Source: Geosiphon pyriformis uo1
Lineage: Eukaryota; Fungi; Glomeromycota
Length of the DNA: 64,000 bases
Direction: 5' to 3'
NCBI GenBank assembly: GCA_016748015.1
Contig: JAAOMT010000226.1
Coordinates: forward strand, 124,001 to 188,000
Made by a program: the position numbers and the translations under genes. The notes beneath the pieces are model-generated. The model searched no databases and was not told where the DNA came from. It worked only from the letters and a program-made list of their open reading frames with translations. This document shows positions 1,631-43,054 of this stretch, piece after piece. Position 1 is the first letter of the stretch; each line of letters begins with the position of its first letter.

Positions 1631-2297
1631 TTAATATTGAGCTCCGTCAAAATCTTCATTCTGAATTAGCTCTAATACTTTTTTTTCTAGTATTGTTTGT
1701 TCAATTTTATTTTTTACGTTTTCTACTTGTATATTGTTCATTCTTCCCCATTAATTAATGGTTATGGTTTCCCATGTCAGAGTGTAACAGTATTTCTGGA
1801 TAGTTCTAAAATATGTTGTGTAGTCAATAAATTGTTCTCACATATAGTGTTGAGTTTGTCTTTTTTTCAATAAATTCTTTAATTTGCTGTATTATGTTTT
1901 GGTTAAATACTCTTTTGAATTTGTTGATATACAACTTCTGAATATTCAACTTTTGACCTAATTAATAGTAGCAGTATAATATTGGAAGTTGTTCTGTCTA
2001 TTGCTTTCAATTCTCTTTTGTAAGTTCTTTTGTTAGTGCCATAATAAGTATTTTTCCAAAAGTGTTTCTTACTTTTTCTATTATGTTATTTGACCAGTTT
2101 TTATTACTCTTTGATATTTGCTAATATGGTGTATTTTTTGTTTTTTTTTTGGTATTTCAATAGCAAATTGTTTGGTTGTTAATGATAATTTCTATTTTTA
2201 ATAATTGTTAACTTAATGCCTGAAATAATTGCTAAGCTATGATGTGAATATGATCTGGTATTTCCATTTTCTTGGTTGCTTTTGTTGTGTATACTGT
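1631..2297 (-). pseudogene. ORF3 of A (accessory ORF after integrase)
   Basis: Homologous to ORF3 of C/D/E; ends DFDGAQY* at the PPT; several premature stops. Confidence 0.75.
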
Positions 2298-7202: not shown

Positions 7203-8204
7203 TGTTACCAGAGGTTTTTGGTCTCTTTTTTTAAATGTTGTTAATGTTGATTTGCTGTGAATTCACATTTTCAGGAAGTAGTTGGACCTTTAGTAACTGA
7301 ATTTATCTTCAAATTATCTCCTATAATTTGAATTACTGGGCTTATAAGTGGAATAGCCAATTCTTTGCCAGTTACTTTATGTAGTTATGTTGTAGTAAAC
7401 GTCAACTTTTTCTCAGGAATTGCTCATCTGGAAGCTCATTAAAAATGTGTAGTTACTTTGCTGTGAAAGTCAACTCTTCTACAAAAATCTCATTTGTAGG
7501 CTACTCTAATGATTATAATAAGAAAATAAAAGAAATGTAAAAGAAATTGAATTCTGTAAAGGGAAACGTTTTCTATCCAGGCCTGGAGTCACTAACAGTT
7601 TACTGAAATTGGTAGCTAATCAATTTCAAAATGTTAATTGTGTTTTGGAGGTTTTCCAAGTGCAATAATTTAAGGAATTTGGTTTTTTGAATTATTTGAT
7701 ATTTTATTTCTTTTTTGTGTGTAGGAATAGTTCTAAGTAATAAATCTAAAGTAAGATACATTTTCTTGAAAAAAAAAGCTCTTCTTTAATACAACTTGTT
7801 GTAATACTAGTCTATGGACTTGTACTTTTTCTCTTTGCTTAAATTTTGGTGAACTAAAGATACATTTTAATGAACTACAAATTATTTCGCTGAATTATTG
7901 ATTAATTTGGGTGAACTATTCATAATTTTGGTGAATTTTTATAAATTTTGGCGAATTTCTTATAAATTTCGGCAAATTTCTGTAAATTTTGGCAAATTTT
8001 AGAATGTTACAAAGTTCAGGGTATTGTATAATTTGATCATTCTACTTTCTGTCATACTAATTGAATTATTTAATTGAATTGTGATATGTGATAATTGATT
8101 AAATAATAAGTAATAATTTGAAATAATATTAATATACTAATTAATTTATAGAAATTATAAGAGTAATTTTATGCTAATTGATAGCTAAAATTCTACTGGT
8201 AACA
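7203..8204 (-). repeat. 3' LTR of B
   Basis: TGTTACC...GGTAACA; contains a ~20-bp AATTTTGGCGAATTT array at ~7840-8000. Confidence 0.93.
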
Positions 8205-8900
8205 TAATCTCCTCCTCAAGACTGAGCTCCGTCAAAGTCCAAGCACTATCTGTGATATTGAAATAGTGATCCAAAATAATTGAAGTAATCTGATCTGAAA
8301 ATTGTTGAAATTTCAGTTTTGTGAGTTTGCCAATGTATTGGATTTTTATTGGTTGCAGTATTGGATTTTGTAGAACATTTTCACAAGTATTAAACAAATT
8401 ATAAAGTCTAAAAGCTGCTCTAAGTTTGTAGTGAGTATTTGTTAGTCCAGCTGCTGTTTTAAATTCATTGTGAATTTGTTTTTGTATAGCTTCAGGAGTG
8501 AGATTTGTTGCTTCAAGTTCCAGTTTTTGTTCATAAAGTGTCTTTCCAATGTGAAAGTATTTATAGATAGGGGTGTGTTCATTGTTTTGTTTATTGAGAA
8601 GTAGTAGAAGTTTTTGTTACATTGTAGCATTCGGTAAAATGTCAATAGGGACAATTAAAAAATTTTCTTCCAGTGCTTGCTTCAAAAATCTTGGTAACCT
8701 ATTTTCAGAGTGACTTCTTGTTTTTCTTCTATAGGGGTGATAGTTCTGTGGATGATTTACTACTGGGGCTGTGGTTTTTTTCTAAATATAATTAATTTGA
8801 CTTCCATTAATTGTTATGAATAAGTCAGGAAGTGTTTTCAAGGCTAACATTAACTTTTGGGATATTTGTTAAATATTTTAGGGAATAATAATGATAAAAT
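8185..8900 (-). pseudogene. ORF3 of B
   Basis: Frame reads ITINGSQI...YKYFHIGK...RAAFRLYNLF...IGKLTKLKFQQFSDQITSIILD, which aligns with ORF3 of C/E; start uncertain. Confidence 0.7.
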
Positions 8901-12075: not shown

Positions 12076-12974
12076 TGTTATTCATAGAATATAGGAAATA
12101 TATTATTATTAGCAAGTAGATATTAGCCAATCAGAAATAGATGTAGTAAATGTAGAATTCCAGGATTCCTCTTATTAAGAATTGCAGGATTCCAGGAATT
12201 CCAGGATTCTTGTTACAAGGAATTGAAGAATTGAGGAATTTCAAATATGTATATATAACAGTAGTATTAGAAGCAGAAAAAAAGAAAGAATTAACACCAA
12301 GAATCCTTAGCTTAGTTACCACAATCCTCAAATAAATAATTATTCACTATATTAGATTCATTCTTCATTATCAACACTTCATGTTAATAGTAAATAATAC
12401 TTAACCATACTAAAACAGTAGCTCTTGATCACAGCTATTGATGGGATACTAACTTGCAAATTGCCTTGGCTTATTTTTTATTTTTTATTTTATTTTTTCT
12501 TTATTTTCTTTGCTGTCTACTAACTTGATTAAAGAATTTACTCTTGGAGGACTTACGGAGGAATAAAACACACTTAAACAATACTTACTTTTAGAGAACT
12601 TATGGAGGAATAAAACTTACTTAACCAATACTTACTCTTGGAGGACTTATGGAAGAATAAACTTGCTTAAACAATACTTATTCTTGGAAGACTTATGGAG
12701 GAACTGACATCAGAAAACAGCACTGACATACACTTATGGAAGATATTGTATTAGGAGAATCATCAACCATCAAGCTGAGCAAGCAATTGATGAAACTACA
12801 GTTTCAGGAAACTACTAATAAACTGTTATTACTGAATCTCTGTCCATTATACAAAGAACTCAATTAGAAAACCTTTAGATAAAATACCTTCAGATTATCA
12901 TCATTATTAATTGCTTTGAGCACCAAGTTACGAGTTTATTATTTACACAACACCTCAAAGAATCACCTGTAACA
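12076..12974 (+). repeat. 5' LTR of C
   Basis: TGTTATTC...TGTAACA; TATATA ~12250; AATAAA 12331; four ~47-bp units at 12538-12703. Confidence 0.94.
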
Positions 12975-12976
12975 TT

Positions 12977-12993
12977 TGGTGCTCTCTGTGAGG
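12977..12993 (+). promoter_or_regulatory. Primer binding site of C
   Basis: TGGTGCTCTCTGTGAGG, 2 nt after the LTR; equivalents in A, D, E, F. Confidence 0.85.
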
Positions 12994-13035
12994 TATAATT
13001 CTATAGAGAACCAGTGCCAACAACATTATCCAAAC

Positions 13036-16000
13036 ATGGCAGAATCAGAAATTATAGGAGCCAACCACTTAGGATTTGCAAAATTCTTGTTTCAACAATA
13101 CAGTCAACAATTAGGATTAAACAGTAATCACTACCCAGCCAAATCAGCCTTCAACTATTACATCAATGATAAAATCACAGACTGTTTAGGAGGAACTGTT
13201 AATATTGAGTCAGCAAGAGAAAATTTTTATACAGAATTATTTCAACACACCAGCTTACCAAGAAATTACAGTTTCACCCCAATCATCAGGGAAATTAATC
13301 AAATCATTGAAAGATACATACAACAACAATTTTCCATTACCTACGCAGACAAAGGTAAAGGAAGAATACAAACACCAGCAGTGACACCAAAAAGAATACA
13401 GTTACCTGGTTGGAAGAAACACAGAGTAGAATTACCAACCACTCCATCATATCACTACATACCTGGAAGCACCATCAACATTTTATCAGTAAACATGTCC
13501 ACATTAAACATGACATTAATATTTGGAAGATTTCAGTTTCAAAGCAAACAATGGAAAGAAGACTTACTAAGACCATATGGTGCATATTTTGAAAGATTTA
13601 AATCATGATCCCTAATGCCATCAGGAATTCAATTACCAATACCCTAACCAGATTTCAGAGCTGCTACTCCATGGAAATTATTAGAGAAAGAAGAAAAAGG
13701 AAGTGAAGATCAAAGATTTACTTACCAAAACTCAATCTCAGAAAACTCGGAATTCGGAATCCCAAACATTCAAACTCTGCAAAACTCAAACATAGAAAAT
13801 CTGGAAATTAAAACTCTGAATATTAGAACTTAGCAAAATCAAAACAATCAGAACTCCAATTTAATTAATCAGCCAAACATACTTCCAAATATTGTCATCA
13901 ATCACCCACCAATTGATCCGATAGTCAAACCCATTTAGCAGCCACCTCAACAATCAAATCTGCAAATCCAACAGTCACAAGGACCACTTTAGCAACCACT
14001 ACTGCAACAACAACCACTACAGCAGCCATAACAACAACTAAACATAAACCAAATGGCCTACGCACCTATTGCCAAGTTAGAAAACTTTACTGATGAAGAA
14101 GACGACACTCAAGCATGAATCAATGACATCTCCAAGGCCATTATAGTGAACAATTGGGATGATGCCAGAGTCTTATAGACAATCCCATACTTTCTCAAAG
14201 AAACTGCCAATTCTTGGTATCAGAGTTTAGCTGCCAGATCACAAACATTCCAACAATTCAAAACTGCCTTTCTGGAATATTTTAGCAACAATAACAGTAT
14301 TAATTGTCTAGCCAATACTTTCACCACAATCAAACAGAATAATACTGAAGCAGTCACAACATACCTAGAATGCTTTCATAAAGTCCTATGCCAAATTCAA
14401 GCCATCAATGCTGTGTATTTCACAGAACCCCAAATCCTCAACCAGTTTATTTGTGGCCTGCACAGTAGCATTTTGCAACATGTACGCCCATTACACCCAG
14501 CCAACCTTCAAGCTACAATTACACATGCCAGAGATTTTGAATTAGCTGAGCTAAAAGCCAATCACACTCAAACTGTAAATTTAATAATGAATGGATCATC
14601 TGATTTGGATTCCAAATTGAAGCAAATCAGTGATATCATCAATCAGAAAATAGAGGGATACTTAGCTGACAATAGCATGATTTATCAACCTTCTCAACAG
14701 CATAACAATTAGGGAAACAGGAATTGTTTCCAAAATCAGTTACGTCCATTGTCATCATCCAATCAGCAATGGCAGCCAGAGATGCATGTTTGCCACAACT
14801 GTGGTAAACAAAGCCACATAAAAGCCAACTGCAACACTTATAACTGACAATCGGGAAATCAACATTGAAACCCTAATCACCGATTCCAAACCCTGAATCA
14901 ATATCAAAATCAAGAGCAAAATTAAAACACTTACCTGCCAATGATGCAGCAGCCAATTTATTAAGCACCAATATATCAGACTTCAGTTTATTAACCGCAG
15001 CCACCAGCAATATATCAACTGCAGCCATTCATAATATATCAACCACACCCACAAGTAATCTATCAATCTCAAACCATTCAAACACCACTCCAAAACTTAC
15101 CTCAACATGGAACCCAAAGACTGAGAATAACACAACAAAACTGAAGATTGGCGATGGTTGTCTACCAACTGATCTTCAGTTCTTCTAACTTACCATCAAG
15201 ATTACATTCTCGAAATTCGGGTACTGATACCACCCAAAATCTGAATTCCCAGAACTATTTAAGTCTTCTGGTTACCTCAGAAGACATCACACCCAACAAC
15301 CCGGAACCCAACCCAATCCAAAAACTTACCAGCAATGGTTACTGAAAATGAAACATTAGCAGCCATCTTCCTGTTTGAGTTCGAAAAAACCACCCCAGTC
15401 CTATTATTCAGTGGAACCACCCTTGAAGAAAAACTCATTACAGCAATGTATACTAATGCCAAAGTAGATGGCCACTCCATTAAATTAATCCTAGACAGTG
15501 GTTCAGCAGGCAGTATTATCATGTGACAACTCATGGACCAATTAAGTCACTGAGTTGATCGTGCTGCTAGTGCTCATATAATCACTGCTGATAGAGCAAC
15601 CAAAACTCCAATCAGTAAAATTGACAATTTCCCATTCAAAATCAATGGCATTATAATACCCATAAAAGTCTTGGTAATGAAAGCCACTTAGTATCAAGCA
15701 TTCATTGGCAATGATTGGTTATTCAAAACCAATGCAATGCTTGACTGGACCACCCAGAAACTCCAACTCAGCCAAAATGGCCAACACACACGAGTCCCAG
15801 CAACGTGTGGCCATTTCAAACTCAGCAATATTAGGACAACAACACTGCTTATCAAATTCAAGAAGGAAGAAAACAAACCAATGTGGAAAGTGTATCAAGT
15901 ATTATGGACCAAGGTTGACCACAATGAACTGCCACCAATACTTTCTTGGAATGACAACAACAACGAGAAAAGAAAACAAAGAGCAGAACTTACCTGGGAA

Positions 16001-19000
16001 ACAGATAACCTGACTTGAACCAATAATGACAAACTGACATTGAGCTGGGAATGGAAAAAAAACAAAGAAAGCAATAAAGGGAAGAGAAAAAAGAAGGAAG
16101 AAGAAACAACATTCACTAACACCACTGCTCATAACTCACACATTTATCTATTAGTACCAACTAATTATCATTGATCAAGGCTGATATGTGTTGATTGCAG
16201 CAAGAAATTGTTGTCAATGGGCGCATGCTGTGGCAACAATGAAGAATATTCAATGGCCACCAGATTCTACAGCTGCGCATACATCATAAAACACTTTAAA
16301 AGACCAAACCAGGTGGGAAAATGGGACAATACACTATGTTTAGCTTGTGGAGAGACACTTTTGGACGAAGGAATGTGGAATGACATTCCTGGTCAAAGAA
16401 AAATATGTGATACTTTGTGCCAGTACACAATCCTTATCAGTGATTGGGTTAAGAAAAGGACATCCATAGAAGTCGTCTGGAGAAGAGCAGTATGATGATT
16501 GAAAATTTGTTTACATAACAATGATAAAATCTGGAGAATAGCCTTCACCAAAATTCAAGAAACATTATCCAAAGAAATCAAAGAAGTCAAAAACAACCCA
16601 CCAGAACCCTTAGAACTCAATTGGGACAAAGAACTAGTCATAAATCTCTTGGAACCAAAAGAGTTTCATGAACATTATCAAACTTTAACACCTACAAAAG
16701 AAAAACAAGAGCAATATTTGGCCCAAATAAACACCAGACTATGTGACCACTGTTTGATTCCCTGTAACTTCCAATATTGTAATAAGTGTGACCTCATTTA
16801 CAATCCACCACCACGCATGATCTACACAATCCTAGAGGAAATTGAACCAATCAGCAGCTGTGCATCCAAATCGGAATTACTGTTCAATCTCGATTCAAAC
16901 TCTGACAATGACAATAACAAAAACACCAGTTCCAGCTCTGTTCAAATTGGCAATAGCAATGACAATGATTCCAACTCAGATTCAAACTCCGACCCATAAT
17001 ATGAACAATATATTGCACTGTCAGACTTTTCCAAAGAACAGAAGTTAAAATGGTATAGTGACAATAATGAAGATATTATGCCAGAACACACACATAATAC
17101 TGATGCTAAGTTTGATCTGTGGTATCTAAGAAAAGATGCCATCAAATTAAAACCACATTCACGCACTTACATTGATCTGAAAGTAGCATTAAAAATCTTA
17201 GCAACAACAATGGTTCAACTAGCATTTAGGAATAGTTTAGCAAAAAAAGAGATTAATATAAGAGAAGAAATAATTAACACAGAATATGTAGGAAATATCA
17301 TTGTTATGCTACAAAATGATTCTGAAGAGGCCTATATCATAGAGCCAAAGAAAAAAATAGCACAGACAATATTCCTGCCTCTGGTGAAAATAGGGAGAAA
17401 TTAGAGATAACAGCAAAAAGAATACAGGGATTTGGATCAATGAGTAGAATAGATATACCAGTCAATATGGCAGAAAAAGAAATTGTTGACCAAAGAGAAA
17501 TTATCTCAACGGGTTAAGCAATTTCCATTCCACCATATGGCCAGTACATGGTAGAGATAAAGTGGGAAATAAAAGAACAGAATCAGATTTTTGAAGCAGA
17601 ACCAACCCTTTGTGAATCAGAAGAGATTAGACTCATCAATCTCCATATACCAGCCAAAGATTACAGCCACATCAAAATTTCTATCTATAATAACACAAGA
17701 AATGTCATAGTAATATCAGCTGGAATCATCATTGGATACTTAGACACTAAAATAGAGGATCAACCACCAAGCACCATTTCAGACTTTCCACAGCTTTGTG
17801 AATATGTCAATATCACATCACAAACAATATACAGATGAAGTGAATGTTATTTGCTCCAACCAGAGCAATTGGAACAAATGAACATAGAAAACTTAGACCC
17901 ATTCCAATGTATGTAGCTTAAGATGTTGCTCAACAATTTCAACAACATTTTTGCCAACAAAAACAAGTTTGGCCGAACTGACATTATCCAGCATCAGATC
18001 AAGACTGGAGATGCAATGCCAATTAGCATACAGAGTACCACTAGCTAGCCATGAGATCATTTGTTAAGAGATAAACCGAATGCTTAACAACAGGCTAATT
18101 CAATCATCAATGAGCCCATAGTTATTACCAGTGGTACTCGTCTGGAAGAAGAATAGAAAAATCCAATTTTGTGTGGACTACAGAAAACTCAATAGTATAA
18201 CTCGTGGAGACAGCTATCCAACCCCAAGAATACAAGAATTGTTTGATGCTTTCAGTAGAAACAAATGGTTCTCAACATTAGACTTAGACAGTAGTTACTG
18301 GCAAGTAGCCATAGATTCAGCCAACAAAGAGAAGATGGCATTCACCACTAAAGAAGAGAATTTCAAATTTGAAGTAATGTCATTTGGCTTAACCAATGCT
18401 CCAGCCACTTTCCAATGGCTAATAGAAATTGTTTATACTGGCTTATTGTGGAAATCAATAGTTGTATACTTGGACAACACCAATGTATTCTCAAAAACAT
18501 TTGATGATCATCTTCATCATTTTCAACAAGTGTTCGAAAGGCTAAGAAGAGCAGAACTAAAGTTAAATACAATAAAGTGCTTCTTTGGCAAGACAGAACT
18601 AAAATTTTTGGGACACATAGTCAGCAAAGACGGCATCAAAACAGATTCAGAGAAAATAGAGATAGTAAAGAACTTTCCAGTACCAACCAATGTGACTGAA
18701 TTAAAATTATTCTTGGAATTTGCAAGCTATTATTAATGCTTTATAAAGAACTTTTCAAAGATAACTCAATCACTCAATAATCTGCAAACCAAGAATACAA
18801 AATATAAATGAACAAAAAGTCAACAAGAAGCTTTTGATATTCTGAAAAGAAAGCTCATTTAAGCTTCACTACTAATCTATTCAGATCACAACAAACCATT
18901 CATCATTATCACCAATGCATCAGGCCAAGCATTGGAAGCAGTACTATCTCAGAAGAGACCAGATGGTAGAGAACATCCAGTAGCATATGCCAGCCAAGGT

Positions 19001-19270
19001 CTAACACCAGCTGAAAAGAACTATGGAACACCAGAACTAGAACATTTAGCAATCTATTAGGCAGTTATGAAGTAAAATGAATACTTGAGCCAAAAGTTTG
19101 ATATATACACGAATCATAAAGAGTTAACATCACTTCAAAAGCAAGAATTTGATAATGGCTGCCAATTCAGATGGAAAATGGCCCTGTTACAATATACTTA
19201 TACTATACACTATAAGAAAGGAAAAAACAATGGAAATGCCAATGGTTTGTCGCAAATAAGACAAATCTAA
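13036..19270 (+). pseudogene. C gag-PR-Cys-rich-dUTPase-RT-RNase H polyprotein region
   Basis: CHNCGKQSHIKANC; LILDSGSAG (~15490); CVDC/CLAC/CDHC..C..CNKC; dUTPase ~17090-17445; YLDN (from YLDD); ends NANGLSQIRQI*. Confidence 0.92.
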
Positions 19271-19332
19271 GAATATTTCAACCCAAAAATATAACAAAAC
19301 CAGAACAATACCAACGAAAAATATAACAAAAG

Positions 19333-20715
19333 ATGAACATACAAAAATATCAACAACTTCAACATTATATAAACACTTAACAGTTTAAGAAGAATTTATT
19401 TCAAATGGAACGAAAGAGTATCAAACAACAATTAAAATATTTTATTACTCACCAAAATATACTTTATCGGAAAAATAGAAGAGATCTAGATCAACCAACC
19501 AGAGTAATTACAAAGCCAGAAAAAGAGACAATATTATTCAACATGCACTCAAATCCAACAGCAGAACACTTTCACAAAGAAGCAACCATGGAAAGAACCT
19601 GAAAAAAATACTATTGGCTATCAATGTATCCAGACATCATCCAATATGTTCAAAATTGTGATGCTTGTCAGCAAAGAGGAAGAACAAGACCCAATGAACC
19701 ATTAAGACCAATCAAAGTGGGACAACCATTCGACTGTATTGGAATTGATTTAGTCAGACCATTAACAATTACCAGCAGAGGAAACAGATACATAGTAGTA
19801 GCCATGGACTATCTCACTAAATGGCCAGAGGCAAAAGCAATTCAAAGAGCAGATGCAAAATCTATTGCCAAATTTGTTCATTAAGATTTAATTTGTCAAC
19901 ATGGATGTCCAAAAGAATTATTATCAGACCAAGGAATGCATTTTGTGAACAGAACATTAACAGAATTAAGCCAAAGATTCGGAATTAAGAGACCATTATT
20001 ATTACCATACCATCCACAAACCAACAGATTAGTCGAAAGATTTAACAGAACATTGTGTGAAGCAATAGCTAAGTTCAGCCAAGAAAACCAGAATGATTGA
20101 GATTTGTTGATACTATCAGTACTATTTGCTTATTGGACAATGAAGCAAGATACTACACAAGCAACACCATTTAAATTAGTATATAGTAAAACAGCAACAC
20201 TACCAGTGGAAATAGAAGTCAGCACATACCCAACCAAACCAATAACAGAAGAGAATTTCAAAAACACATTGTTGAAAAGAACATATGACTTAATGGAAAC
20301 ATTAGAAAACAAATGACAGAGAACAGCTGATAACATACAAAGGTCACAAGAGAAACAAAAAGAAAGACATAATAACCAACTACCAGATAAACCAGTTGAA
20401 CTCAAGATTGGAGACAAAGTACTACTACATCATACCAAAGTGGAAAAACAATGGAGTGGAAAATTTAACCCCAAATGGGACAGATCATTTCACATAGAAA
20501 AAATTCTAGGAAATGGAGCTTACAAATTAAGATTAAATAACAAAATCTTGACCAAAGTAGTACATGAAAATCGACTGAAACCATACCACCATAAAGCATC
20601 ATCATCCACCAGTAATATTCCACAACTGAGAGTACAAAGAATACTAGTCCAACCAGATAAGATTCCACAAGATCTGGAACCAATTATCATTATTGATAAC
20701 AACACATCCAATTGA
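19333..20715 (+). pseudogene. Integrase of C (own ATG)
   Basis: MNIQKYQQLQHY; H..H..CDAC; GIDLV, SDQG, VERFN; tail LEPIIIID. Confidence 0.9.
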
Positions 20716-20739
20716 TTAACAGAAAGAATATATAAAGAC

Positions 20740-21399
20740 ATGGTCGACACAATAGAAAAACACAGAAAAATAGAAATTACTGACAACATTCATTTATTAG
20801 CACAACAAATCTTTCAATTAATCCAACACCAGGAGATAGAAATTACAATTAATCAACAAACCATTTGATACAAAAGTACTACAAAAATACCACAACACAA
20901 AATACAGAGAAAACTCGAAAATGTTGTTGACAAAATCATAACCAAAATAAAATTGGCCATGAAAGAACAACAAATAGTCAGATTACACCAAGAACTTACC
21001 GAAAAAACTTGGACTTGGTGGATGCAACAATTTCCGAAAAACTATTGTTATTTTTACTTGGGACAACACGTAAATATCCAGAATTTGTACACTGACAAAA
21101 CAAAATGGTTATTTGACACAACAATACTGAGACAACTGAAACAATATGTGGGAAAGAACAATCTAACCACACAAGCTCAAGCCATTTACCAGCTATATAT
21201 GGGATTTCAGGACTAACCAGAAATCTTACTCAACACAGCAATAGATACAGTTACGAGTAATCAATTGGGAAAAATGACCAATGCCCAATTTGAAGAACTA
21301 CAAACTCAAATAACACAAGTAATACTCGAAAAAAAAGTTCAAGAAATAATTCAAGAAGAGGAATTAAAAGAGTTAGATTTTGATGGAGCTCAATATTAA
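20740..21399 (+). pseudogene. ORF3 of C (~219 codons, two premature stops)
   Basis: MVDTIEKHRKIEITD...YFYLGQH...AIYQLY...LGKMTNAQFEEL...LDFDGAQY*. Confidence 0.8.
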
Positions 21400-21412
21400 A
21401 AGGAGGGAATAA

Positions 21413-22341
21413 TGTTACTCATAGAATATAGGAAGTATATTATTATTAGCAAATAGATATTAGCCAATCAGAAGTAGATGTAGTAAATGTGGAATTCTAG
21501 GATTCTTCTCAGAGAAATTGCAGGATTCCAGGAATTTCAGGATTCTCCAGTGAAGAATTGCAGGATTCCAGAATTCCAGGATTTCTCTCATCAGGAATTG
21601 CAGGATTCTAAGAATTCCAGGATTCCTGTCACAAGAAATTGAAGAATTGAGAAATCTTAAATATGTATATATAGCAGTAGTATTAGAAGCAGAAAAAAAA
21701 AAAATTGACACCAAGAATCCTTAGCTTAGTTACCACAATTCTCAAATAAATAATTATTCACTATATCAGATTCATTCTTCACTATCAACACTTCATGTTG
21801 ATAGTAATTAATACTTAACCATACTAGAACAATAGCTCTTGATCACAGCTATTGACAGGATACTAACTTGCAAATTGCCTTGGCTTATTTCTTATTTTTT
21901 CTTTTATCTTTTCTTTATTTTCTTTGTTGTCTATTAACTTAATTAAAAGATTTACTTTTGGAGGACTTACAGAGGAATAAAATGTACTTAAACAATACTT
22001 ACTTTTGGAAGACTTATGGAGGAATAAACTTGCTTAAACAATACTTACTCTTGGAGGACTTATGGAGGAACTGACATTAGGAAACAGCATTGGCATACAC
22101 TTACGGAGGATATTGTACTAAGAGAATCATCAACTATCAAGCTGAGCAAGCAATCGACAAAACTATGGTTTCAGGAAACTACTGATAAACTGTTACCACT
22201 GAATCTCTGTCCATTATACAAAGAACTCAATTGGAAAACCTTCAGATAAAATACCTTCAGATTATCATCATCACTAATTGCTTTGAGCACCAAGTTACAG
22301 GTTTGTTATTCACATAACACCCCAAAAAATTATCTGTAATA
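21413..22341 (+). repeat. 3' LTR of C
   Basis: TGTTACTC...TGTAATA; three ~47-bp units; longer GGAATTCC array. Confidence 0.94.
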
Positions 22342-29333: not shown

Positions 29334-30208
29334 TGTTACAAGTGATTATTTGGGGTTTCAAATCAAATAACAAACTCATAACTTGGTGCTCAGTATCTAT
29401 TTTGATGGCTAATAATAATAGTATTAGTATGTTGTCTTTATCTAAAGGTTTTAATTAAAAGTCTTTTATATAATAGACAGAGATTCAATGATGAAATAGT
29501 TGGTTGGTGAGTGGTGTTCCCAATTTCTGTTTTCAGCTTGGTGGCCAGTTTATTCTGGCAGTTGTGCCCTTCTAGTAAGCTATCTGTTAATATATATATA
29601 ATTTTATTCTTATTTCTGAGTCTTTTACCAGGCTATCCATAACGTTAATTACTTAGTGCTTTAATCCTTAACCAGTTAGTATACAATAAAAAAATCAAGA
29701 AAAAGAAAATAAAAAAAAGAAAATAAAAAAATGAGCCAAGGCAATGCACAAGTTAGAATCCGTCAATAGCCATGATCAAGAGCTATTGTTCCAGTGTGGT
29801 TAAGTATCAATTGCTATCAACATGAAGTGTTGATAGTAAAGAATGAGTGGAATGGTGAATAATTATTTATTAGTATTTGTAAATGGAAGGTTGCTTAGAT
29901 AAAATCTAAACTAAGAGGTCTCTAATGGGAGGATTTTGCTTTTTTACTTTTAACACTACTACTATATATACCTTATTAATATTCTACAAGATTGCTCACA
30001 TTCCCAAGCAATATGTTATGATTTTTTGAGCAATGCTCATATTGCTGAGCAATGTGCCCTAATTTTCTAATATTGCTTTATATTGCTAAGTAATGTGCTG
30101 TGTTTTCTGACATTGCTCTACATTGCTGAGCAATGTGTTCACATACTACATATTATTCATTTATTGGTCTACTATTTCCCTATATTTGTTTTTTTTTTAT
30201 AAATAACA
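29334..30208 (-). repeat. 5' LTR of A
   Basis: Followed on the minus strand by PBS TTTGGTGCTCCCTGT; 100 bp longer than the 3' LTR owing to extra CATTGCT..AGCAATG units. Confidence 0.93.
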
Positions 30209-30212
30209 ATGG

Positions 30213-30490
30213 TGTATAGTGCAAATGTTATCAGATAGTGTGGTTAGGATGCTTGGCATTGTTAACTCCCTTGCTGTTAGTTTTGGCTGTTGTAGATCTT
30301 GTCTTTTCTTTTCTAGGTTAGATTGTAATCCACATGTTATTATAGGTGTGTAATGTTGTCTTGTCTGGCCCGAGTGGCTAGCCACATATAGCAAGTACAT
30401 AAACTACATTTAGTTTGAGCCTCTTAGTATGGCTTTTTGTACTAGATAGTGGTTGGACTTCACTTGTTAAATGCATTTAATAATAATAAA
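30213..30490 (+). mobile_element. Continuation of the same LINE: ORF2 C-terminus, 3' UTR and (TAA)n tail
   Basis: Resumes after TSD ATGG as CIVQMLSDSVVRMLGIVNSLAVSFG...PHVIIGV*; ends TTTAATAATAATAAAA at ~30476-30491. Confidence 0.7.
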
Positions 30491-31715
30491 ATTTGGTTAT
30501 TTAAATGTATTTTAAGTTTTTTAAAACTATTAAAGCTGTTTTTGTTTATTAATTAATTTTAATAATAAAAAATAAGTTATTGTTTTTCATAATATATTTA
30601 ATACCAAACTAATTAATTTTTTTTGGTTATATAGTTTTAAGATTAATAATTTGGTTTTTAAGATTAATAGTCAAATTTATTTTATTTTTTAATTTTTTAA
30701 TATTAATTATTATTAATAATTTGCTATTATTATTTTTAAATTTAAAAAGCTTTTAATAAAATAATTATTAAAATTAATGTTTTATGCAAAAATTATATTT
30801 AATAAAAAATTTTTAAGTATTAATATTTTAATAGATATTAAAATTAAAATTATTTGGTTTTTAATTATAAAGTTTCTTATGGTTTTTAAAAACAGTTTAT
30901 TGAGTTTTTTATTATATTTAAAATTTTTTTTAATTAATTTATTAGCTTAAATTTTATGTTAAAGCTGTTGTTTTTCTGTTTAATTTTTTAAAAACTTTAT
31001 TAATATAAAATATAAATTAAAAATTGATTTTTTTAAAATTCAAATCACAAGATTTTTTAAGTTTAATTAAATTTATAATATTAAAAATTAGTTTTTTGGC
31101 TTTGTTAAAATTAATTCTTTTATAAATATTGAAAATTGTTTGTTTTTTAAAAGCTTAAATCAAGTATATTGTTAATTTAATTATTATTGTACTTAAAAAT
31201 TCCAATTAATTTAAAGTTAAAAATAAAGCTTAAATTATAAATACTCATAAATTTAGAAGTTTTAAATTAATTAATAATAATAATAATAAAATATAATATA
31301 TATTTTATGTTAAAAAATAAGATTAAGTTTAATAATTGAAAAATAATTGCAAGTATTTACTAAATACTTTGTTAAATTAAAACATTAAATATTTTTGATT
31401 TAAAAAATAAATAAGTATTTATTAACTTAAGTTTAAGTAATTAATCACATATAATAAATGTGTAAATCATACTTATAGTTTAACTTTTTTGGAGTTTTCA
31501 ATATAAGTTATAATAAAATTACACTTAATTAAAACATAATAAAAAACAATTAATAAATTTTAAAATTAATATAAGCAAATCCAATTTTTGAAAACTTTAG
31601 TTATTAATCAATTTATAATAAACTAAACTTTATTCTAATATATTTTAAAATTAAAATCCAAAATACTTGATCATTAAAACACAAAATTATAATATTTGTT
31701 TTTATTTTAATGAAG
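30491..31715. other. Extreme AT-rich tract, probably fully decayed repeat
   Basis: Very few G/C and no ORFs; switches abruptly to CpG-containing DNA near 31720. Confidence 0.55.
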
Positions 31716-32084
31716 ACAAACATCTCGTGATTTTAACTATTTCTTTTTGGTACAAGAACCTGTGTTTCAAACGAATAAAATCTGGAAATCACGGTTACCA
31801 CTGTATCCGAATACCATTTTAGAATATTGGCAAGGATCATTAAATTTGATCAACAACAATTAAACAGCAAACAAATTAAAGGTTAGCAATTCATAGGGAA
31901 CCTCATAGAATTGGATTTGATTCAAAACACTACCCAAAGCATCAAGATAAACAAGGAAAAAATACAGTTTTAAAACCCAGAGATAATAAAAAAGCTTGGA
32001 AGGATATTAGCCAACATGGGCTTTCTTTATGATCTGATCGTTGAAATCATGTCTAGATTATATTATGTTACTATTGATTACTTT

Positions 32085-35000
32085 TTAGGAGACAAGCGCG
32101 GGGCGTTTTTGTATCTCATGGTTTTCGGGTTGAGACTATTTTTATTGTGATAGAATACAGAAATAAGTATTCAAAGTTTGTTAATTAATGATTAAGAAGT
32201 TGATTTTTAAACAATTACCTCTTCGACTTTTCGTTTCCCAAGTATAGAATTGGGAGTACTTTGAAGTGATGATTGGGCATTTTCTTGATTCTGAAATATC
32301 ATCAATTTGATTCAGAGGTCAGAAAGTGCAGGGCTTTGGAATAAAAATATTTGGTGTATTGAATTGCATACCTTTACCACGTCAGCATAGCAGCTAGCAT
32401 GATATATAACACTATCAACTTCTATTGCATTCTTGAATATCCATTCATCATCAGGATCACTATAAAATTTCTTAAACTTTTCTTGACAAATTGGACAAGG
32501 TTTGCTGATTTTTTCCCAATCTAAAGGTACAATGACAGTTGACTCATTAACTTCATCCTTTGTTTGCGAAGTGTTGGTAGAATTCTTAGAAGAGGAGATA
32601 TTATCAAAATCAAAAAAAGCAGGTGTTTTGCTATTATTGGAGTCTGTTTCTCGAGAATAAATCCAATCCTGAAATCAATCATAAAATTGTAATGAATGAA
32701 TTTGGAATATGACCATGTTAAGAAAAGGAAAAATCTTCTATATATATCACCTCCTCGTTAACAAACCAACTCCTGCTTTGTGCTTTTTTTGCTTTATCTT
32801 TCATTCTTCTATTCTGTCGAAAATGCCAGTCTAAGTGAGTATCCATCTTAGACTTGCCCTCTTCTGTTTTTGCGTATCTAAATCCACATTGTTTGCATTG
32901 TAGAGGATATGCATCATAAAGCACCGAAACAGTTCCTTCACGTCTCCTATTACAGGTTGAGATTTAACCAGTTTATAACTTGCCGAGATATTTTAACTGA
33001 CTGGCTTTACCAACTTAATACATAGAAAATAAAAAACTTACTTTTGTACATCGCTGCTTGTAAGCTCAATTTTACCAATATCGCCAAGATGAGAAGATTT
33101 TGCCGGGACGTCTACTGTAGGTGGTGTAGATGTATTAGAAACGACACCCACACCATTATTACCATTATTACCAAGATTAAACCCAGCCATCGGATTGAGT
33201 ATATTTGGATTAGAACCTAACAATCCAAATTCCATTAAATTTCTAACCAAAGCATTGGGATCAGATACTAATGAAGTGATTGTTGGAGGAACAGGGGGCA
33301 CCATATTCAAAGATTGATTATAAGGGCTTGTCTGTGGAGCATTAAGAGTATTTGGTGGTTGAGCTATTAATGTGGATCCAATGGAAGCCGGAAGATTTGT
33401 AAATGGGGCAGGAGTAAGGTTTACACGGGTTGCTGTAATGGAGGGACTCATATTATAAGTCGCTATTTGTTGACGAAACTGTTGAATTTGATCGGGTGTC
33501 AACATTGTTACTTGCATGACTTCCAAAAGCTAATGATCGAGGAAATAATTTAATACAGAATGCGTATATCCCAAAATTTTACCAAAAAAACAAAATTAAT
33601 TTTAAAGGCTCACCTGTTGCAGCGCTTGAATTTGATTTTGGTTATTGAGATCTCCAGCATTTTGTAAAGCGTATTGTTGCCGTTGCAATAATATAGATCG
33701 ATATTCTTGCAATAGATGCGCTTGATCCGGCGGAGGTACGAATACTTGCTTTGGTTGCTGCAAAGGAAGGTGAGCAACAGGTGCCTCGGATGCATACTAA
33801 TGACCGTATAAAAGAACCCCAAAAGAAAAAACATCAATATCTAAAGAGACCCTGATTTCTAAACGTTGGGTGTCTTCTGCAGCGATCTCAGAAGGAAAAG
33901 CAATCAGTATTGCTCTTTAAAACAAGATTTGTAATATAAGGCTTTGCTTTGTTCATGGTTTTTTGTTTTTCAATTTTTTTTTACTTCTTTGATGTTTTCT
34001 TTTTTTTTTCTTATTTGATATATTTTTTTTCATTTTCATTTTGTTTTAATTTTTTTTTTGATTTGCTTATTTTATACATTGTCATTTTTTGAATTTTCAA
34101 TTCGACTCTTAGGTCGACATTATATAAGTTCATTTTAATACACGACCTTTCCAACCATATCAATCTGAAGACCCGCAATTTGCAAAAAAATGAAAACAAC
34201 CTCAGCCTATGGCTGTGCTCTTGGTATGTTCTCAAACCATTTTTAAACATATAATACATGGGAACATCGGTACGGCAAAACATAAGTTTTCGTAGATGTA
34301 TCCGCCCACCCACCCACCCACCCACGAGCAGTGGCCAAATGCTTACAAATAATTGTATTTCACATGAAAGACTAGAAATTGCAATGTACAAAGAATGATA
34401 AGATACTTACCAGCTGGGTTGAATAATATCCTTGGCGACTTGGTGGTGTTATGGTGAATGAGGAACCGCCATTGGTATAATGGCGGTTTTCAGGCCATTG
34501 ATTTTGAAGCTGTTGGACCTGCTGAGGTGATTGAACCGCTTGCTGCTGTGGTTGAGATTGATGCTGGTATTCGCTTATTGAAGTCTGATTTTGTTAAAGT
34601 TAAGATCATGAAAGCAGAAAAATTGAATTTATTATTGTTTGAGGAAATTGATAAACCTTACCATCCCAGCAAGAAAATTAGGATTTATATGAATATGTGT
34701 TCTTCCACTGTCTATCGATCCTCTGGATTGGTGGCGCATTTGTTGCTTAACTACAGCCCTTTCAATTGATCCAGTTACATCAGGCGGATAAACGGGACCA
34801 CCATTAGGTCCAACTTTCCAAGTTGCGAGTACACGCTCAAATTTTTGTTTTGTGGCATCATCGACCACATTATATGCATCGATAAAAGTATGCAATAGGT
34901 TGTGTGAAAAAAGTTGGATATATGTGCCACCCACGTTTTTGCTAATCGAATCTAACAAATAAAGTACTGGCAACTTTTGGGGCGGAGGGGACTACAAGAT

Positions 35001-35245
35001 GCGTATTTGTTTTTTTCAATATCTAGTGGCAGAAAGCGTCTTTTCTAGTACTTCTAAAAGGTAATAAAACTCACCCCCTTAATTTGATCTTCAATAGCTT
35101 GGACGATGGCACGCGCAACATGAACATTCTCTTGGGCGATAATAGTCAAGTTGGTGATGATCGGCTTGGAGTTAAAGGTTAGCTCTGATAGTTGGGCACG
35201 ATATTCAATACGAACTGCTTCCAAATCGGTCTCTGGATTGTTCAT
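32085..35245 (-). CDS. PCF11: Pcf11 cleavage/polyadenylation and termination factor, 653 aa. Exons 35245-35075, 34991-34662, 34584-34411, 33796-33614, 33529-33042, 32946-32751, 32668-32372, 32290-32219, 32135-32085
   Basis: CID motifs [13 protein letters not shown] and [12 protein letters not shown]; zinc finger QCKQCG...HLDWHFRQN; RSWF...DW Clp1-binding region; second finger CPIC...EW...YHASC. All introns are GT-AG and the spliced frame is open (1962 nt). Confidence 0.93.
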
Positions 35246-35421
35246 AGCTCAATAATTAAAGGCTATACAGAAGAAAAAAGCAAGAATCTAGTTAGTAGTT
35301 AATAGAAGTTTGGACATTCGTAGTCAGCTCAGAAATTTTTCTAGTATTTATTTCGACTATCACTGGTTCTTTAATTATAGGTTTCATCAAGCCTATCAGC
35401 CCTTGGCACTAGAACCTGTTG

Positions 35422-35429
35422 ATCACGTG
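35422..35429. promoter_or_regulatory. E-box ATCACGTG (bHLH/Cbf1-type site) ~180 bp upstream of the PCF11 ATG
   Basis: Motif match only; it retains its CpG at the edge of the AT desert. Confidence 0.35.
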
Positions 35430-36232
35430 CTTTATGTAAGGTTCAAATTTGATAAATTTTTATTAAAGTAAAAATAATGGTTTAAAAATTACCAAAATTA
35501 TTGAGTGTAAAAATAGTTATAAAAACAATAAAATTTTTTTAATATATTTAAAATAACAAAATTAATTTATAATAATAAATATTTATTTAAAATTTAAAAA
35601 TAGTAAAAATAATAATATTTAAGATATAAAAAACAAAAACAATTGTTAAATTTTAAATTTTATGTTTTATTAAACTATTTTAATATATTTAAAAAAACAG
35701 TTTTGTTTTTAATTTATTCAAATTTTAATATACAGTAAATTTTATTAAAATATATGTAATTATAAAATTAAAATAATATTAGTTTTTAATAACTTAAATA
35801 ACTTTAAAAAATTAGATTATTTGTAAATTATTTTTTATTTATTTATTTTAATTAAATATAAATATTTATTTATATTTAAATATTTATAATAAATATAAAT
35901 TACTAATCTTTTTTTCTTTTTTGTTTTTATAATTAAACTTAAAAAAAATAATAAAATAATTATAATTCTTATTTTTAATATTGTTTTTATTAATTTTAAT
36001 AATTAAAAAGTTTTTTTAAAGTAAAAACAATTAAATAATACTTTTTTAAAATACGTTTTTTAAGTAATATAAAATTAAAACAGCTTTTAACTGTTGTTAA
36101 AACATTATTTTTGGCTTTAAATAAAAGTTTTTTATTCAAAAATATTTTTAAATAACTAATTAAAAGTAATTTTAATATAATAATAATAATAATAATTATT
36201 ATTATTATTATTATTTTAAATTTAAATAAATA

Positions 36233-37071
36233 TATTACTTATAAAAAAAATATAAAAATAATAATAGTATAAATAGCCAATACCAAAATAAAAAATTATT
36301 AGAACACATAATATTAAAAATTTTAAAAATTACAAAATATTAATAAAAATGCCAGAAATTTTAAAAATACCAGAAAATTTAGTAATAACTTAAAGAAATT
36401 GTAAGGATTTTAAAAATTTTGTATTACAAAATTTAAATATATATAATAAAAATAATAAAAGTCAAAAAAAATTAGTTAATTATTAAAACAAGACAACAAA
36501 TAAGTTTACTTTAAGATTTGTTTAATTATTTCTACTTTTATTAATAATTACAAATTAATCAACTATTTAATAAAAATCTTTATCTTATTTATTAATTAAT
36601 AAATTCAAAATTATTGTATTAAAATTTATATTATTATTATATTGATATTGTTAATATTTATAATAACTATTTAATAAAACTAAAACAATAGTTCTTGATT
36701 AAAGCTATTAATAAAATACTAATTATAATTTTATTATTTTATTAATTATATTTGTTTTAAGTTACTAATTAATTGTAAAAAAGTATTAAGATTATAATAT
36801 CAAAGATTGTTAAATAAAAAATCAGAAAAAAACATAAACATAATTAAAAAACTAAGATTACTTATGAAAAAAGTGCAAATATTAGAATAAATTAATTATT
36901 AAACTAAAAAAATTATTAAAATTATTATTAATTACTGTTAAATAAATTTCTGTTTATTATATAAAAAACTTTAATACAAAATTTTCAGGAAATTTTTAGA
37001 ATATACTTAATCAATTTAAACATTAAATTACAGAAATTATTAATATATACTTAAAAAATCTATTTGTAATA
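36233..37071 (+). repeat. Heavily decayed solo-LTR-like relic of the same gypsy family
   Basis: TATTACTTATA start (cf. TGTTACTCATA); AACAATAGTTCTTGATTAAAGCTATT at ~36685 (LTR hairpin motif); TGTAATA end. No clean TSD. Confidence 0.6.
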
Positions 37072-37199
37072 ATAATCTAATTATTAATAATATATATAAA
37101 CAAATTAAGTATTTATATTAATATTAATATTTTTATTAAGTCTAAAAAAAATATATATCTATTAAATAAATCAAAACTAATTATAAAAGTTTTAATAAT

Positions 37200-40100
37200 A
37201 TTAAGTCTTCAAATTTGGGTTTAAGTAAATTTAAGATTCTAACTATTAAAGTAGGTAGATTAAAATCAAAAATAATGGCTCTTAAAGTTTCAGTTAGTTT
37301 AATTTTAATGAAGTTAAATTAGTTTTATATTAGTTTAGATGCTTTGTTGCTTTTTTTATCTCAATAATTGATTTAATATGAAAGTTTACTATATGCAATA
37401 TTCAGAATATCAATGTTTTTGTAAAGCAAAAAAACATTGTTTGTTGGCATATAAGTATCAATAATATGATCTTTATAGTTACAAAAACAAAATTAAGATC
37501 TAATATTAAGTTATAGATTATAAATAAGTTTAATAGAGTGTAAATTTTTATGTCTGATTTGAATAAGAGTTTTTTTGGTGCTAATATGGCTATTGTTATG
37601 AATAATTTTCTGGTTTGACATGTTTTTAAGATGAAAAAAGTTTTTAGTCAAATTATTTCAGTATAGTTACTCTTTAAAGACAAGTTTTCAATTATAATTT
37701 TGGGTTTATATATTGGTGCTTTTGCTAAAATTAGATTTAATCAGGCTGCAAAAATCAATTTTTACATTGTTAAAATAGTTAACTTCAGCATTTTTATTGT
37801 CTTAAGTGAGATTTCAATAAAGATAAACTTAAGAAAAGTACAAGTTTCAAGTTCTATTTGAATTTAGAATTGGTTAATTTGTTTAGTGAGTATTTATTAG
37901 TTAAAGTTTTTACTTAAAACAATTTGAGAGATAGTAAAAAAACCTTAAATTACATTTTTGTAAATAAAAATTTGTTATCAATAGTAGTTAGTTATGAAGT
38001 TGGCTTTATTTCTGATTTTTTTAACACTAATTACAAAACAGTTTCAGTTTTAATTAATATAAATAGTTTTTTAGATATCTAATTGAATAATATATATAAA
38101 CAAGCTAATAAAGATTACTGAAAATTTAAATTTAACAATACAAATAGTGTTAAATAGATATAATTTAAGGAGTGTTTTTCTGTCAAGTTTTTATTAATAA
38201 TAAATAAGTTTTTTGAAACTAGAATTTGTAAAAATTTGGATGTTATATAAGAGCTATTAAAAAAAGTAATAATAAAATCAGCTAATAAAATATTTTTTAG
38301 ACTTTGGTTTAGTAAGTTTTAATGTTCAAAAAACAGACAATTTTCAAAATTTTTTGGATGGCAAAGAAGCTGTCAAGATCATAAATATGATTCAAAATAA
38401 TAATAAATTAATATATATTTTTAAACAATTCTTAACAATCTGAAAAAAATACAGGAAGTTTAAACTTAATAAGTCAAGAATGATAGAGAAAATATTTATT
38501 AAGAAAACAATTGAAAAACACATGAAAAGTTTTTGTTCTAATAAAGAAAATATAATAAGTAGTATTTTGGATCAGTCTTTTTGCAAGATAGTTCTAAATT
38601 ATTTAGTAATTAAAAATAAGTTGGTTTTAAAACCAAAAAAGATTAAGTTTAATATTAACAAGATTATAGAAAACTAAACAAAAAAAGTGAATCATGTTTA
38701 CAGTAATGTCTGATCTTTGGGCTTGTTAATATGTATTTTTAAATTATGTAAATAATGATGCTTTTTCTAAAGTAATAAAAAAAATTAGTATATAAGAATT
38801 AATTACAGTTATTAATAGTCTACTTAATAACAAAGCTACTAAACTATTTGACATCTTTAATAAACTTTAAAAGCATAATAGTAATACTATAATGAAACAT
38901 TTTTTAAAGCTTCTAAATATATATTTGTCTCTTAATAATGTTTTGTTCTATGAAAAAAGCATAGATTTTGTTTGCATATTGTAAATTTAATATTCTTTAA
39001 AATAAAATTTTTTTTATATTAAAAAGCACTTTGATTCAGTTTTTTGTATTTGCTATTAAGTCTGTAATAGAAAATACTCTAGAAAAAAATAGAGAATTGT
39101 GGTTGGTCCTACAAAATATGTATAAAGCATATGACTTAGTTAGATAATATTACTTAAAAACTAACTTACAATAGATTAAAATATGTAATTAGTTTATTAA
39201 ATTTTTTAACAACATATATAAAGATAGAATCAATAAAGTAATGATTAATTTTGGTTTTTTGAATAATTATAGAGTGCATAATAAATTGGATTAGAATAAA
39301 GTATTTTCATTTTTTTTTTAAAAAATTTTTTATAATTCACTCTTGTGTAAAGTTAAGAGACATGAATATTTGGGTGAATACCAAATTAATACTAATCAAA
39401 TTGGGCAGAATTAAGAATAGTAATAAAATAATTTTTTTTTGCTGCTAGTATATTTATGAATAACACAATTTGGGTTAGAAATTGTTAGGCTTTTATACAA
39501 TATGCTTTAGATATTGTAAGCAAATTTTTTATAATCAATAATATTTCAATAAACAATAAAAAAATAATAATTATTCTTATTAATTAGAATATTAAGATTG
39601 CTTCTTTGAAGATTAGTGGCTTACCAATTTCAATTGTCAAAAAAAATAAAATACACAGATACTTAAGAATTTTTTTATTAACTGAGAAATTATCAAAGCC
39701 AAATTTGGCTAAGACTCATTTTAATATTCAAATTTTTGTTAATATAATGCTTAAAAAAACTATTACAGATAAACAGTTCTCTTATTTGGTATTAGCTGTT
39801 TTATAGCTTATTGTTAACTATAAGTCTTAGTTTAGTTTTGTCTTATTCAGTATGTATTGTAAATAAGATGTTATAATTAAAAAAAATCTCAAATTTAAAG
39901 CCAATCTATTACATAATTTTTTTAGTAAAGTGCTACATTATTCTTTTTTTTATGGTTTAAAATCATTTAAACAAATACAAACTGAAAGCAAATTGGCATT
40001 TGTGATAAATTTTTTTAATGCTTTAGATATTTTTGGACAGTTATTTTGTAACAAACTTTTGAACTTACAGATTTTAGGCTGGATTTTTTTAAATTTTTTG

Positions 40101-42402: not shown

Positions 42403-43054
42403 TTAATATTGAGCTTCATCGAAATCTCTTAATTCTAACTCTCTGTTGTTGAGTATTTCTTGAACTTCTTTTTTAAGTATTATTTGTGTTATTCTGTTCT
42501 GTAATTTTTCAAATTGGGCATTGGTTATTTTTCTCATTTGGTTAATTGTAATGGAGTTCATTTCTGAATTAAATAAGATTTCTAGTTTGTCTTGAAATCC
42601 AGTATGTAGTCAATAGATAGCTCTTGCTTGTGTAGTTAAATTGTTTTTTCTCACAAATTGTTCTAGTTGTTGTAGTATTGTTGTATTAAATAATCATTTT
42701 GTTTTATTCATGTATAAGTTCTAAATGTTCAAGTATCATCCCAAGTGGAAGTAACAAAAATTCTTTAGAAATTCGAGTATCTATTATTTTTAAGTTTCTT
42801 TAGTTAACTCTTAATATGTGGTGATATTTATTGGTTTTTTTATTGCTACTTTTATTTTCAGAACCATTTTGTCAATGGTGTTTTCTGTTTTCTTTTGATT
42901 TGGGTATCTTTCTGATATCTCAGTATCAAATGGTTTATTGGTTAATAGTAATTTCCATATTTTGTTATTAAATCAGTTGAAATAGTTGTTGTGCTAGTGC
43001 ATGAATGTTATCAGTGATTTCTATTTTTCTGAAGTCTTCCATCATGTTTACCAT
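42403..43054 (-). pseudogene. ORF3 of D
   Basis: Homologous to C/E ORF3; ends DFDEAQY*. Confidence 0.75.

Follow-up and report, generated by a model that had tools for sequence, protein, structure and literature searches.

The LTR retrotransposons of the window (the whole 64,000-nucleotide stretch of Geosiphon pyriformis DNA analysed here) carry a third gene, ORF3, between the integrase (IN) gene and the polypurine tract (PPT), and this gene is conserved and has evolved under purifying selection. ORF3 was reassorted as a module relative to near-identical integrases rather than inherited with IN. Judged by the sequence searches described below, its product falls in no catalogued family, and we conclude that it probably represents a new protein family, encoded in a slot that is itself of a known kind. 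We tentatively favour a role for this protein as a soluble, separately transcribed nuclear DNA-binding regulator of its own element, acting as a transactivator or an anti-silencer.

Organization of the elements

The window contains a nest of decayed LTR elements, with element C lying in B, B in A, and E in D. Pfam matches place gag ahead of a PR-RT-RH-IN order in element C, as in Ty3/gypsy elements, and the hallmarks of that group (paired TG...CA LTRs, a primer-binding site, a PPT and a target duplication) are all present; the coordinates are collected in Table 1. The target duplication of C is 4 bp (ATGC) and lies outside both LTRs. Target duplications could be read in C, E, B and D (four of the five elements), and these 4-bp sequences are biased, with ATGC found twice and ACAT/ATAT twice. 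A dUTPase is sited between PR and RT in element C, a position also described for fungal elements (PMC6431247). Membership of the chromoviruses was considered and rejected, since IN of C and of the metagenome element L001 gave no chromodomain match in Pfam; IN ends about 40 residues past the SH3-like domain.

The integrase is a cistron of its own. RT-RH closes with a conserved TAA, and the position of the IN start is kept in all six elements (ATG in five, ATA in D), 24-62 nt beyond the RNase H TAA across an A/C-rich spacer (window 19268-19335; L001 772-801). A 32-nt duplication alters the frame from RH to IN in C and E. Because IN is separate, the elements are likely to be tricistronic (gag-pol without IN, IN, and ORF3), with ORF3 literally the third cistron.

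The two LTRs of a pair are 88-94% identical and differ by 56-98 transitions as against 2-3 transversions; CpG is depleted (O/E 0.19). Several further features of these elements were noted. Two regions are without a Pfam match, namely a highly variable Cys-rich stretch of about 440 residues that is inserted after the protease and before the dUTPase (about 15750-17070, + strand), and a Gag N-terminal extension of about 390 residues ahead of the capsid-like domain (13006-14050, + strand). Near the start of U3 each LTR family carries a tandem array peculiar to it, with units 20 to 41 nt long, and the end of U5 pairs with the primer-binding-site sequence as a hairpin (12905-12995, and also in E, A, D and B; z -2.0 to -5.2). 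This hairpin recalls Tf1-type self-priming, although no transcript start is evident at the paired word. Elsewhere in the window, the region from 30000 to 41000 is very AT-rich (GC 11-31%) around an island at 32000-35000 with GC 33-37%, and this island contains several ORFs of 100-163 codons.

The ORF3 gene and its copies

Table 1. Positions of the features discussed, numbered from the first nucleotide of the window
Feature	Position	Strand	Remarks
Element C, whole	12076-22341	+	
5' LTR of C (12076-12974) and primer-binding-site position (12975-12984)	12076-12984	+	
Decayed gag, protease, Cys-rich insert, dUTPase, RT and RNase H of C	13006-19270	+	
RNase H stop of C	19268-19270	+	Upstream of IN ATG
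Integrase of C, separate cistron (H2C2, rve, SH3-like)	19333-20715	+	Own ATG
TATA-like word	20729-20736	+	Candidate internal promoter
In-frame upstream ATG and 10 codons, ORF3 of C	20740-20769	+	
ORF3 of C, conserved start to stop	20770-21399	+	Start is codon 11, ATA here
N-terminal helix-strand-strand module	20770-20877	+	pLDDT about 55-62 in P0003 model
Basic low-confidence linker	20878-20925	+	[RKH]x2-5PY in 6/8 clades, not in copy C
All-helical conserved core, three-helix centre, G-x-x-N turn	21001-21357	+	Predicted
Putative cis-acting DNA word before PPT, AGCTCA core	21386-21397	+	In 6/6 elements, in two different frames
PPT of C	21398-21412	+	
3' LTR of C	21413-22341	+	Tandem array of about 40-nt units at 21491-21648
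ORF3 of A	1631-2267	-	Frameshift, many stops; tail to 1634 in other frame
Divergent ORF3 of B	8188-8889	-	2 stops; frame crosses PPT into 3' LTR
ORF3 of D	42403-43024	-	Frameshift, many stops
ORF3 of E	49512-50141	-	3 stops
LTR tandem arrays	12155-12240, 21491-21648, 7842-8000, 29991-30137		

A preliminary description of this DNA reported an ORF of about 220 codons between IN and the PPT in all five two-LTR elements. The position holds for all five, but the gene is closer to 210 codons, is decayed, and begins at 20770. In element C the frame from 20740 to 21399 (+ strand) comprises 219 codons, with two in-frame stops, at codons 43 and 159, and its stop codon abuts the PPT. The upstream ATG at 20740 is found in C, D and E and is missing from A, and the start that the clades have in common is codon 11 (20770) instead. 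A mean of 14 stops is expected in the C frame, and none of 5000 composition-matched resamples had two or fewer. When all six frames of the window were searched with an HMM of the family, only five loci matched, all of them lying after the integrase gene and before the PPT (C, 20770-21387 on the + strand; E, 50141-49521; D, 43024-42418; A, 2267-1746; B, 8889-8188). None of the five frames is open today, there being two stops in C, three in E, two in B, and many together with a frameshift in D and A. Intact relatives exist as P0003, P0162 and P0270, and these natural copies make direct expression and testing possible.

The family comprises eight clades, drawn from a 23-row tree together with pairwise identities, which are about 20-45% identical and have one predicted helical domain in common. 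Identity between the B clade and the C/D/E clade is about 20%; aligned as profiles they give a probability of 77% (E 2e-5 over 182 columns), whereas a reversed control gave 0.2% and 40 block shuffles gave at most 1.7%. In blastn comparisons no match reaching 120 nt connects the LTRs of B with those of the other elements, so that the likeness of the B protein despite unrelated LTRs, already suspected from its motifs, is borne out. The C-terminal DFDGAQY was rejected as a protein motif. B and L001 read the same DNA word in another frame, which argues for a cis-acting signal and not for protein conservation. In B-type elements the ORF3 frame passes through the PPT into the 3' LTR (window 8188-8230; L001 3085-3148).

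Selection on ORF3

Selection at the protein level had been proposed from the motifs kept by B, with a dN/dS near 1 named beforehand as the result that would count against it. Codon models fitted to ORF3 of C, E, D and A gave an omega of 0.21 (GY) or 0.28 (MG), which is far from that value; the bootstrap interval is 0.12-0.28, and omega = 1 is rejected with a likelihood-ratio statistic of 107.5. Both the N-terminal part (0.14) and the core (0.20) are constrained; the corresponding values are 0.34 for IN and 0.20 for RT. Of the five other frames of ORF3, four gave omegas of 1.2-2.3, and the antisense shadow frame gave 0.26, a frame in which omega is also low for IN and RT. Pairwise Nei-Gojobori values are 0.26-0.33, and were replaced by codon models because of the transition bias. 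Decay after insertion should raise omega, and thus the ORF3 values are likely to be conservative. All of these DNA-level tests concern the copies in the window (five, with omega computed on C, E, D and A).

Predicted structure and family searches

The preliminary description supposed a helical protein, and the models agree insofar as they are mainly helical, but the N-terminus also has two short strands. The full-length model of P0003 has a pLDDT of 77, with a confident helical core, a low-confidence N-terminus and a disordered basic linker, and the core domain of L001 modelled by itself reaches a pLDDT of 87 and a pTM of 0.82. Most of the columns common to the eight clades are hydrophobic, the others including G, N and one S/T position; no conserved acidic or Cys set and no catalytic-looking set is found in them. 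Four basic positions, kept in six of the eight clades, flank the G-x-x-N turn between two helices. The pI of the whole protein ranges from 5.4 to 9.9.

Searches of the ORF3 domain against Pfam, PHROGs and NCBIfam gave nothing above cut-off, neither a described gypsy domain, a confident match to which would have spoken against novelty, nor, in Pfam, a ParB-type helix-turn-helix or RNA-binding family. Foldseek returned nothing at E <= 0.001 from PDB or BFVD. In a structural search of 48,161 chains with the core domain no row reached Z 8, the level below which matches are noise (13 for helical bundles). Rank 2 was residues 101-200 of Spo0J/ParB (1vz0_A), at a sub-noise Z of 5.8 with rmsd 4.3 over 94 aligned residues, tied with unrelated rows; of the five best rows it alone covers the whole domain, and the row above it is a designed protein. 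With the full-length model the best Z was 5.5, on long helices, and Spo0J was absent from the top 50. Absence from these match lists does not in itself exclude a ParB, helix-turn-helix or env family.

The DNA-binding region of ParB and the N-domain of YhcG are probably related helix-turn-helix-type domains. Seven of 60 members matched DUF1016_N (PF17761) at E <= 1, the best at E 0.0028, with matches seen in B-clade members; the best score was 18.2 bits against a curated cut-off of 32.8, and spurious-looking matches were equally strong (Glypican 5/60, FtsQ 15/60, phrog_23683 13/60). A profile of the YhcG N-domain, built from 45 of 76 extracted domains, aligned to ORF3 with a probability of 3% (E 0.015), a value reached by 9 of 100 block shuffles; the alignment covers 58 columns without a long gap, with a colinear Y-x-x-I-G ... 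G ... Y-x-x-F, at a noise-level score. The YhcG N-domain is described just as helical and unassigned (PMC1189080). Importin-5, from a sequence search of PDB, was dismissed as helical noise (E 0.008 with one alignment and 7.1 with the other). We regard the Spo0J/ParB and YhcG matches as two weak hints of a helix-turn-helix-type domain, and not as an assignment. The earlier suggestion of nucleic-acid binding thus gains slightly, from the fold hint and the conserved basic residues, but the 1vz0_A match itself lies in the noise.

Proposed role

The regulatory role proposed above builds on the gene itself, its position, the selection on it, its modular exchange and the solubility indicated by hydropathy, together with a predicted fold. 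ORF3 would be transcribed from an internal TATA promoter just past the IN stop and translated from the Met at codon 11. All four of the related copies C, E, D and A keep the word TATATAA unchanged between IN and ORF3, 41 nt before codon 11; with this spacing the leader would be very short. In L001 the spacer is AT-rich and about 320 nt long, with a TATA word 125 nt upstream, and none is present upstream of B ORF3. The basic linker would then direct nuclear import. By the published PY-NLS consensus, for which yeast Hrp1 is an example (PMC2408616), the linker is a candidate PY-type import signal in most clades: [RKH]x2-5PY occurs in 6/13 and 5/11 members of the two B subclades, 2/2 of the P0251 clade and 1/3 of the A clade, and both metagenome clades carry it in the linker as well. 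The window copies E and A do have this motif, and it is absent from copy C and from 19/19 database proteins of the C clade. B-clade members without a match mostly have SY or LY, and the YHPY of that clade is identical to the end of the Hrp1 signal.

Once in the nucleus, the three-helix core may contact DNA in the manner of a helix-turn-helix, through the G-x-x-N turn and the basic helix that follows it. The target would be the element's own LTR, in which the family-specific tandem arrays are candidate sites. A search for words in common between the region upstream of ORF3 and the LTR of the same element gave no excess beyond chance (exact words, 6 by 6, a comparison whose power is lowered by decay), with p 0.14-0.31 in four elements and no common word in the other two. 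A more ambitious form of this proposal, which we consider doubtful, is that these elements are a tricistronic lineage whose ParB-like helix-turn-helix protein activates its own LTR, or counters its silencing, in a sequence-specific manner, a module-swapped fungal counterpart of Tas or VANC that helped LTRs to fill about 41% of the genome despite methylation-type decay.

A role at the level of RNA is a minor but real possibility, the protein acting either as a Rev/CERV-like exporter of genomic RNA or as a caulimovirus P6-like factor for translation of IN. IN is cut off from RT-RH by the TAA, and is shifted in frame in C and E, so that it needs a subgenomic RNA or reinitiation. Hrp1 and Nab2 are RNA-binding proteins. 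Both are yeast cargoes of the PY-NLS pathway (PMC2408616), and CERV provides a precedent in an LTR retrotransposon (PMC10309623). Against this, the searches gave no RNA-binding family above cut-off, the sequence ahead of ORF3 shows no conserved splice acceptor rich in pyrimidines, and the weak fold hint favours DNA-binding domains.

Exchange of ORF3 relative to integrase

Between elements D and A, about 1450 nt of IN contain 15 transversions, as against about 125 in 620 nt of ORF3. Counted per 300 nt, transversions amount to 0.3-1.9% in IN and 19-23% in ORF3, with a step at the IN/ORF3 border, such that ORF3 alleles only about 65% identical in DNA stand on near-identical integrases. The step is repeated at four-fold sites (4/81 in IN and 8/11 in ORF3), which points to recombination and not to relaxed constraint. 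C and E have pol in common (0-1.7% transversions) and differ more in ORF3 (5%), gag and the LTR. The dUTPase-RT-RH-IN cassette (17200-20250, compared with E, D and A) is itself a mosaic, near-identical between C and E and, in IN, between D and A, whereas the gag and LTR backbones that carry it are more divergent. As ORF3 lies next to the LTR, their joint inheritance requires no functional link and does not prove one.

These comparisons bear on whether ORF3 is a cofactor of the integrase or particle, whether as a chaperone, a carrier for nuclear import or a substitute in trans for chromodomain targeting. ORF3 lies directly 3' of an IN that has no chromodomain match, the target duplications are 4 bp long and biased, and the protein bears a candidate import signal. 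However, ORF3 was inherited apart from IN, which weakens an obligate partnership; the divergent D and A alleles stand on near-identical integrases, C and E differ in ORF3 on a common pol, and the same target bias is seen among elements with very different ORF3 alleles. We therefore think a cofactor role unlikely, and the suggestion of an IN chaperone in the preliminary description is weakened, ORF3 alleles that differ by about 20% in transversions being found with integrases that differ by about 1%.

Distribution of the family

Database matches to copy C are all named Geosiphon pyriformis (107/107), as are all 120 listed of the 204 matches to copy B. Searching 1.84 billion representatives with a profile yielded 113 matches at E <= 0.001, and the eight new ones that were looked up comprise six from Geosiphon and two metagenome proteins; no other named fungus occurs among the listed matches to C and B or among these eight. 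Scanning of metagenome data with two peptide patterns found at least two relatives among 592 stretches. In L001, RT-RH is followed by IN (interrupted by one stop), about 320 nt of spacer, an intact ORF3, a PPT and an LTR, and L002 has the end of IN, an extra 128-codon ORF and a partial ORF3. Thus both the gene and its position are conserved beyond one assembly. The additional ORF of L002 (425-811) lies between the end of IN and ORF3 and has no Pfam match. No relatives of ORF3 were found in viral contigs or phage records.

At least 353 proteins of the family were gathered; 69 of them are longer by at least 40 residues, and 53 of these 69 match other parts of the window elements. The apparent family expansion in Geosiphon is therefore one of a transposon gene annotated as host genes, and these 'hypothetical' proteins, at least 353 in number, are a single transposon-borne family. 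Kinship with a helical domain expanded in mycorrhizal proteomes, as the preliminary description supposed, is hinted at by one language-model match, in which P0270 queried against the Atlas hit a Mucoromycota hypothetical cluster of 98 members (0.94, 176/256 features); P0003 gave no match there. This Atlas match, the exchange of ORF3 as a module and the further unrelated ORF in the ORF3 slot of L002 could indicate a gene taken up from the host or a foreign source, or a factor in copy-number control, immunity or addiction that acts on other elements or on the host rather than on its own expression. We consider this quite unlikely, as no stand-alone host homologue was seen, all five window copies are element-bound, and the extended database proteins mostly match element parts.

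Comparison with known systems

Third ORFs in the sense orientation are commonly classed as env-like. An env-like protein, or a small membrane protein for cell-to-cell transmission, would agree with the sense orientation and env position of ORF3, but is very improbable: in nine of nine proteins the highest 19-residue hydropathy window is 0.27-1.29, none exceeding 1.3, hydropathy reveals no hydrophobic leader (N-terminal 11-residue maximum 0.47-1.4) or membrane-length segment, no furin-type cleavage site is found, and the model is compact, soluble and helical. The preliminary description had likewise seen no signal peptide or transmembrane segment, in agreement with these hydropathy values. No fusion-protein fold appears in the structural match lists, which do not in themselves exclude one.

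Published accounts of LTR elements in fungi give gag and pol as their genes (PMC3248453). In the literature searched we found no account of the ORF3 family, of a sense non-env fungal ORF in this placement or of the separate IN cistron; the Geosiphon genome paper and Repbase-type entries were outside this scope, and prior mention is possible there. LTR sequences are reported to make up 41.2% of the G. pyriformis genome (PMC11952901), and an element-encoded regulator, if ORF3 is one, would be a concrete candidate for how LTR expansion escapes control. At the least, the elements have in ORF3 a deep, selected, non-env third gene.

The nearest parallels in position come from Ty3/gypsy elements of plants and fungi, and are the extra ORFs of maize Grande (gene23), RIRE2, Retand, PvRetro13 and Botrytis Boty, which are described as occupying the same slot between pol and the 3' LTR in all copies and as conserved like pol (PMC7264820). 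According to the same source, GENE23 of Grande is a nuclear protein with a promoter of its own, the Grande-type ORFs are antisense, and the sense ones are env-like, some with transmembrane domains. ORF3 differs from the Grande-type ORFs in being sense, apparently soluble and without a Pfam family. The overlap with Spo0J/ParB and the YhcG (DUF1016) N-domain is weak and at noise level in both cases; ORF3 has no match to a ParB N-terminal or nuclease family, and its context is that of a eukaryotic retroelement.

Three accessory proteins offer models of function. Tas/Bel1 of foamy viruses, encoded by an accessory gene at the 3' end, binds both the LTR and an internal promoter and activates them (PMC4929722), and is itself expressed from the internal promoter (PMC13220597); it can serve as a works-like model only, since no link in sequence or fold and no common target word was found, and ORF3 belongs to a fungal host and an element without env. 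VANC of VANDAL/MuDR is a transposon-encoded accessory protein that counters silencing (PMC13547354), for which the points of comparison in the ORF3 elements are heavy transition decay in the host and family-specific LTR arrays; VANC, however, is from dicot DNA transposons and is MAIN-related, whereas ORF3 has no such match. The LTR retrotransposon Cer1 of C. elegans encodes CERV, a nuclear accessory protein other than env, which is made from a spliced mRNA and exports RNA (PMC10309623), whereas ORF3 shows neither splice evidence nor homology to it. Extra ORFs in this slot are thus of a known kind, and CERV, Tas and VANC may be regarded as functional analogues only of the protein that we propose.
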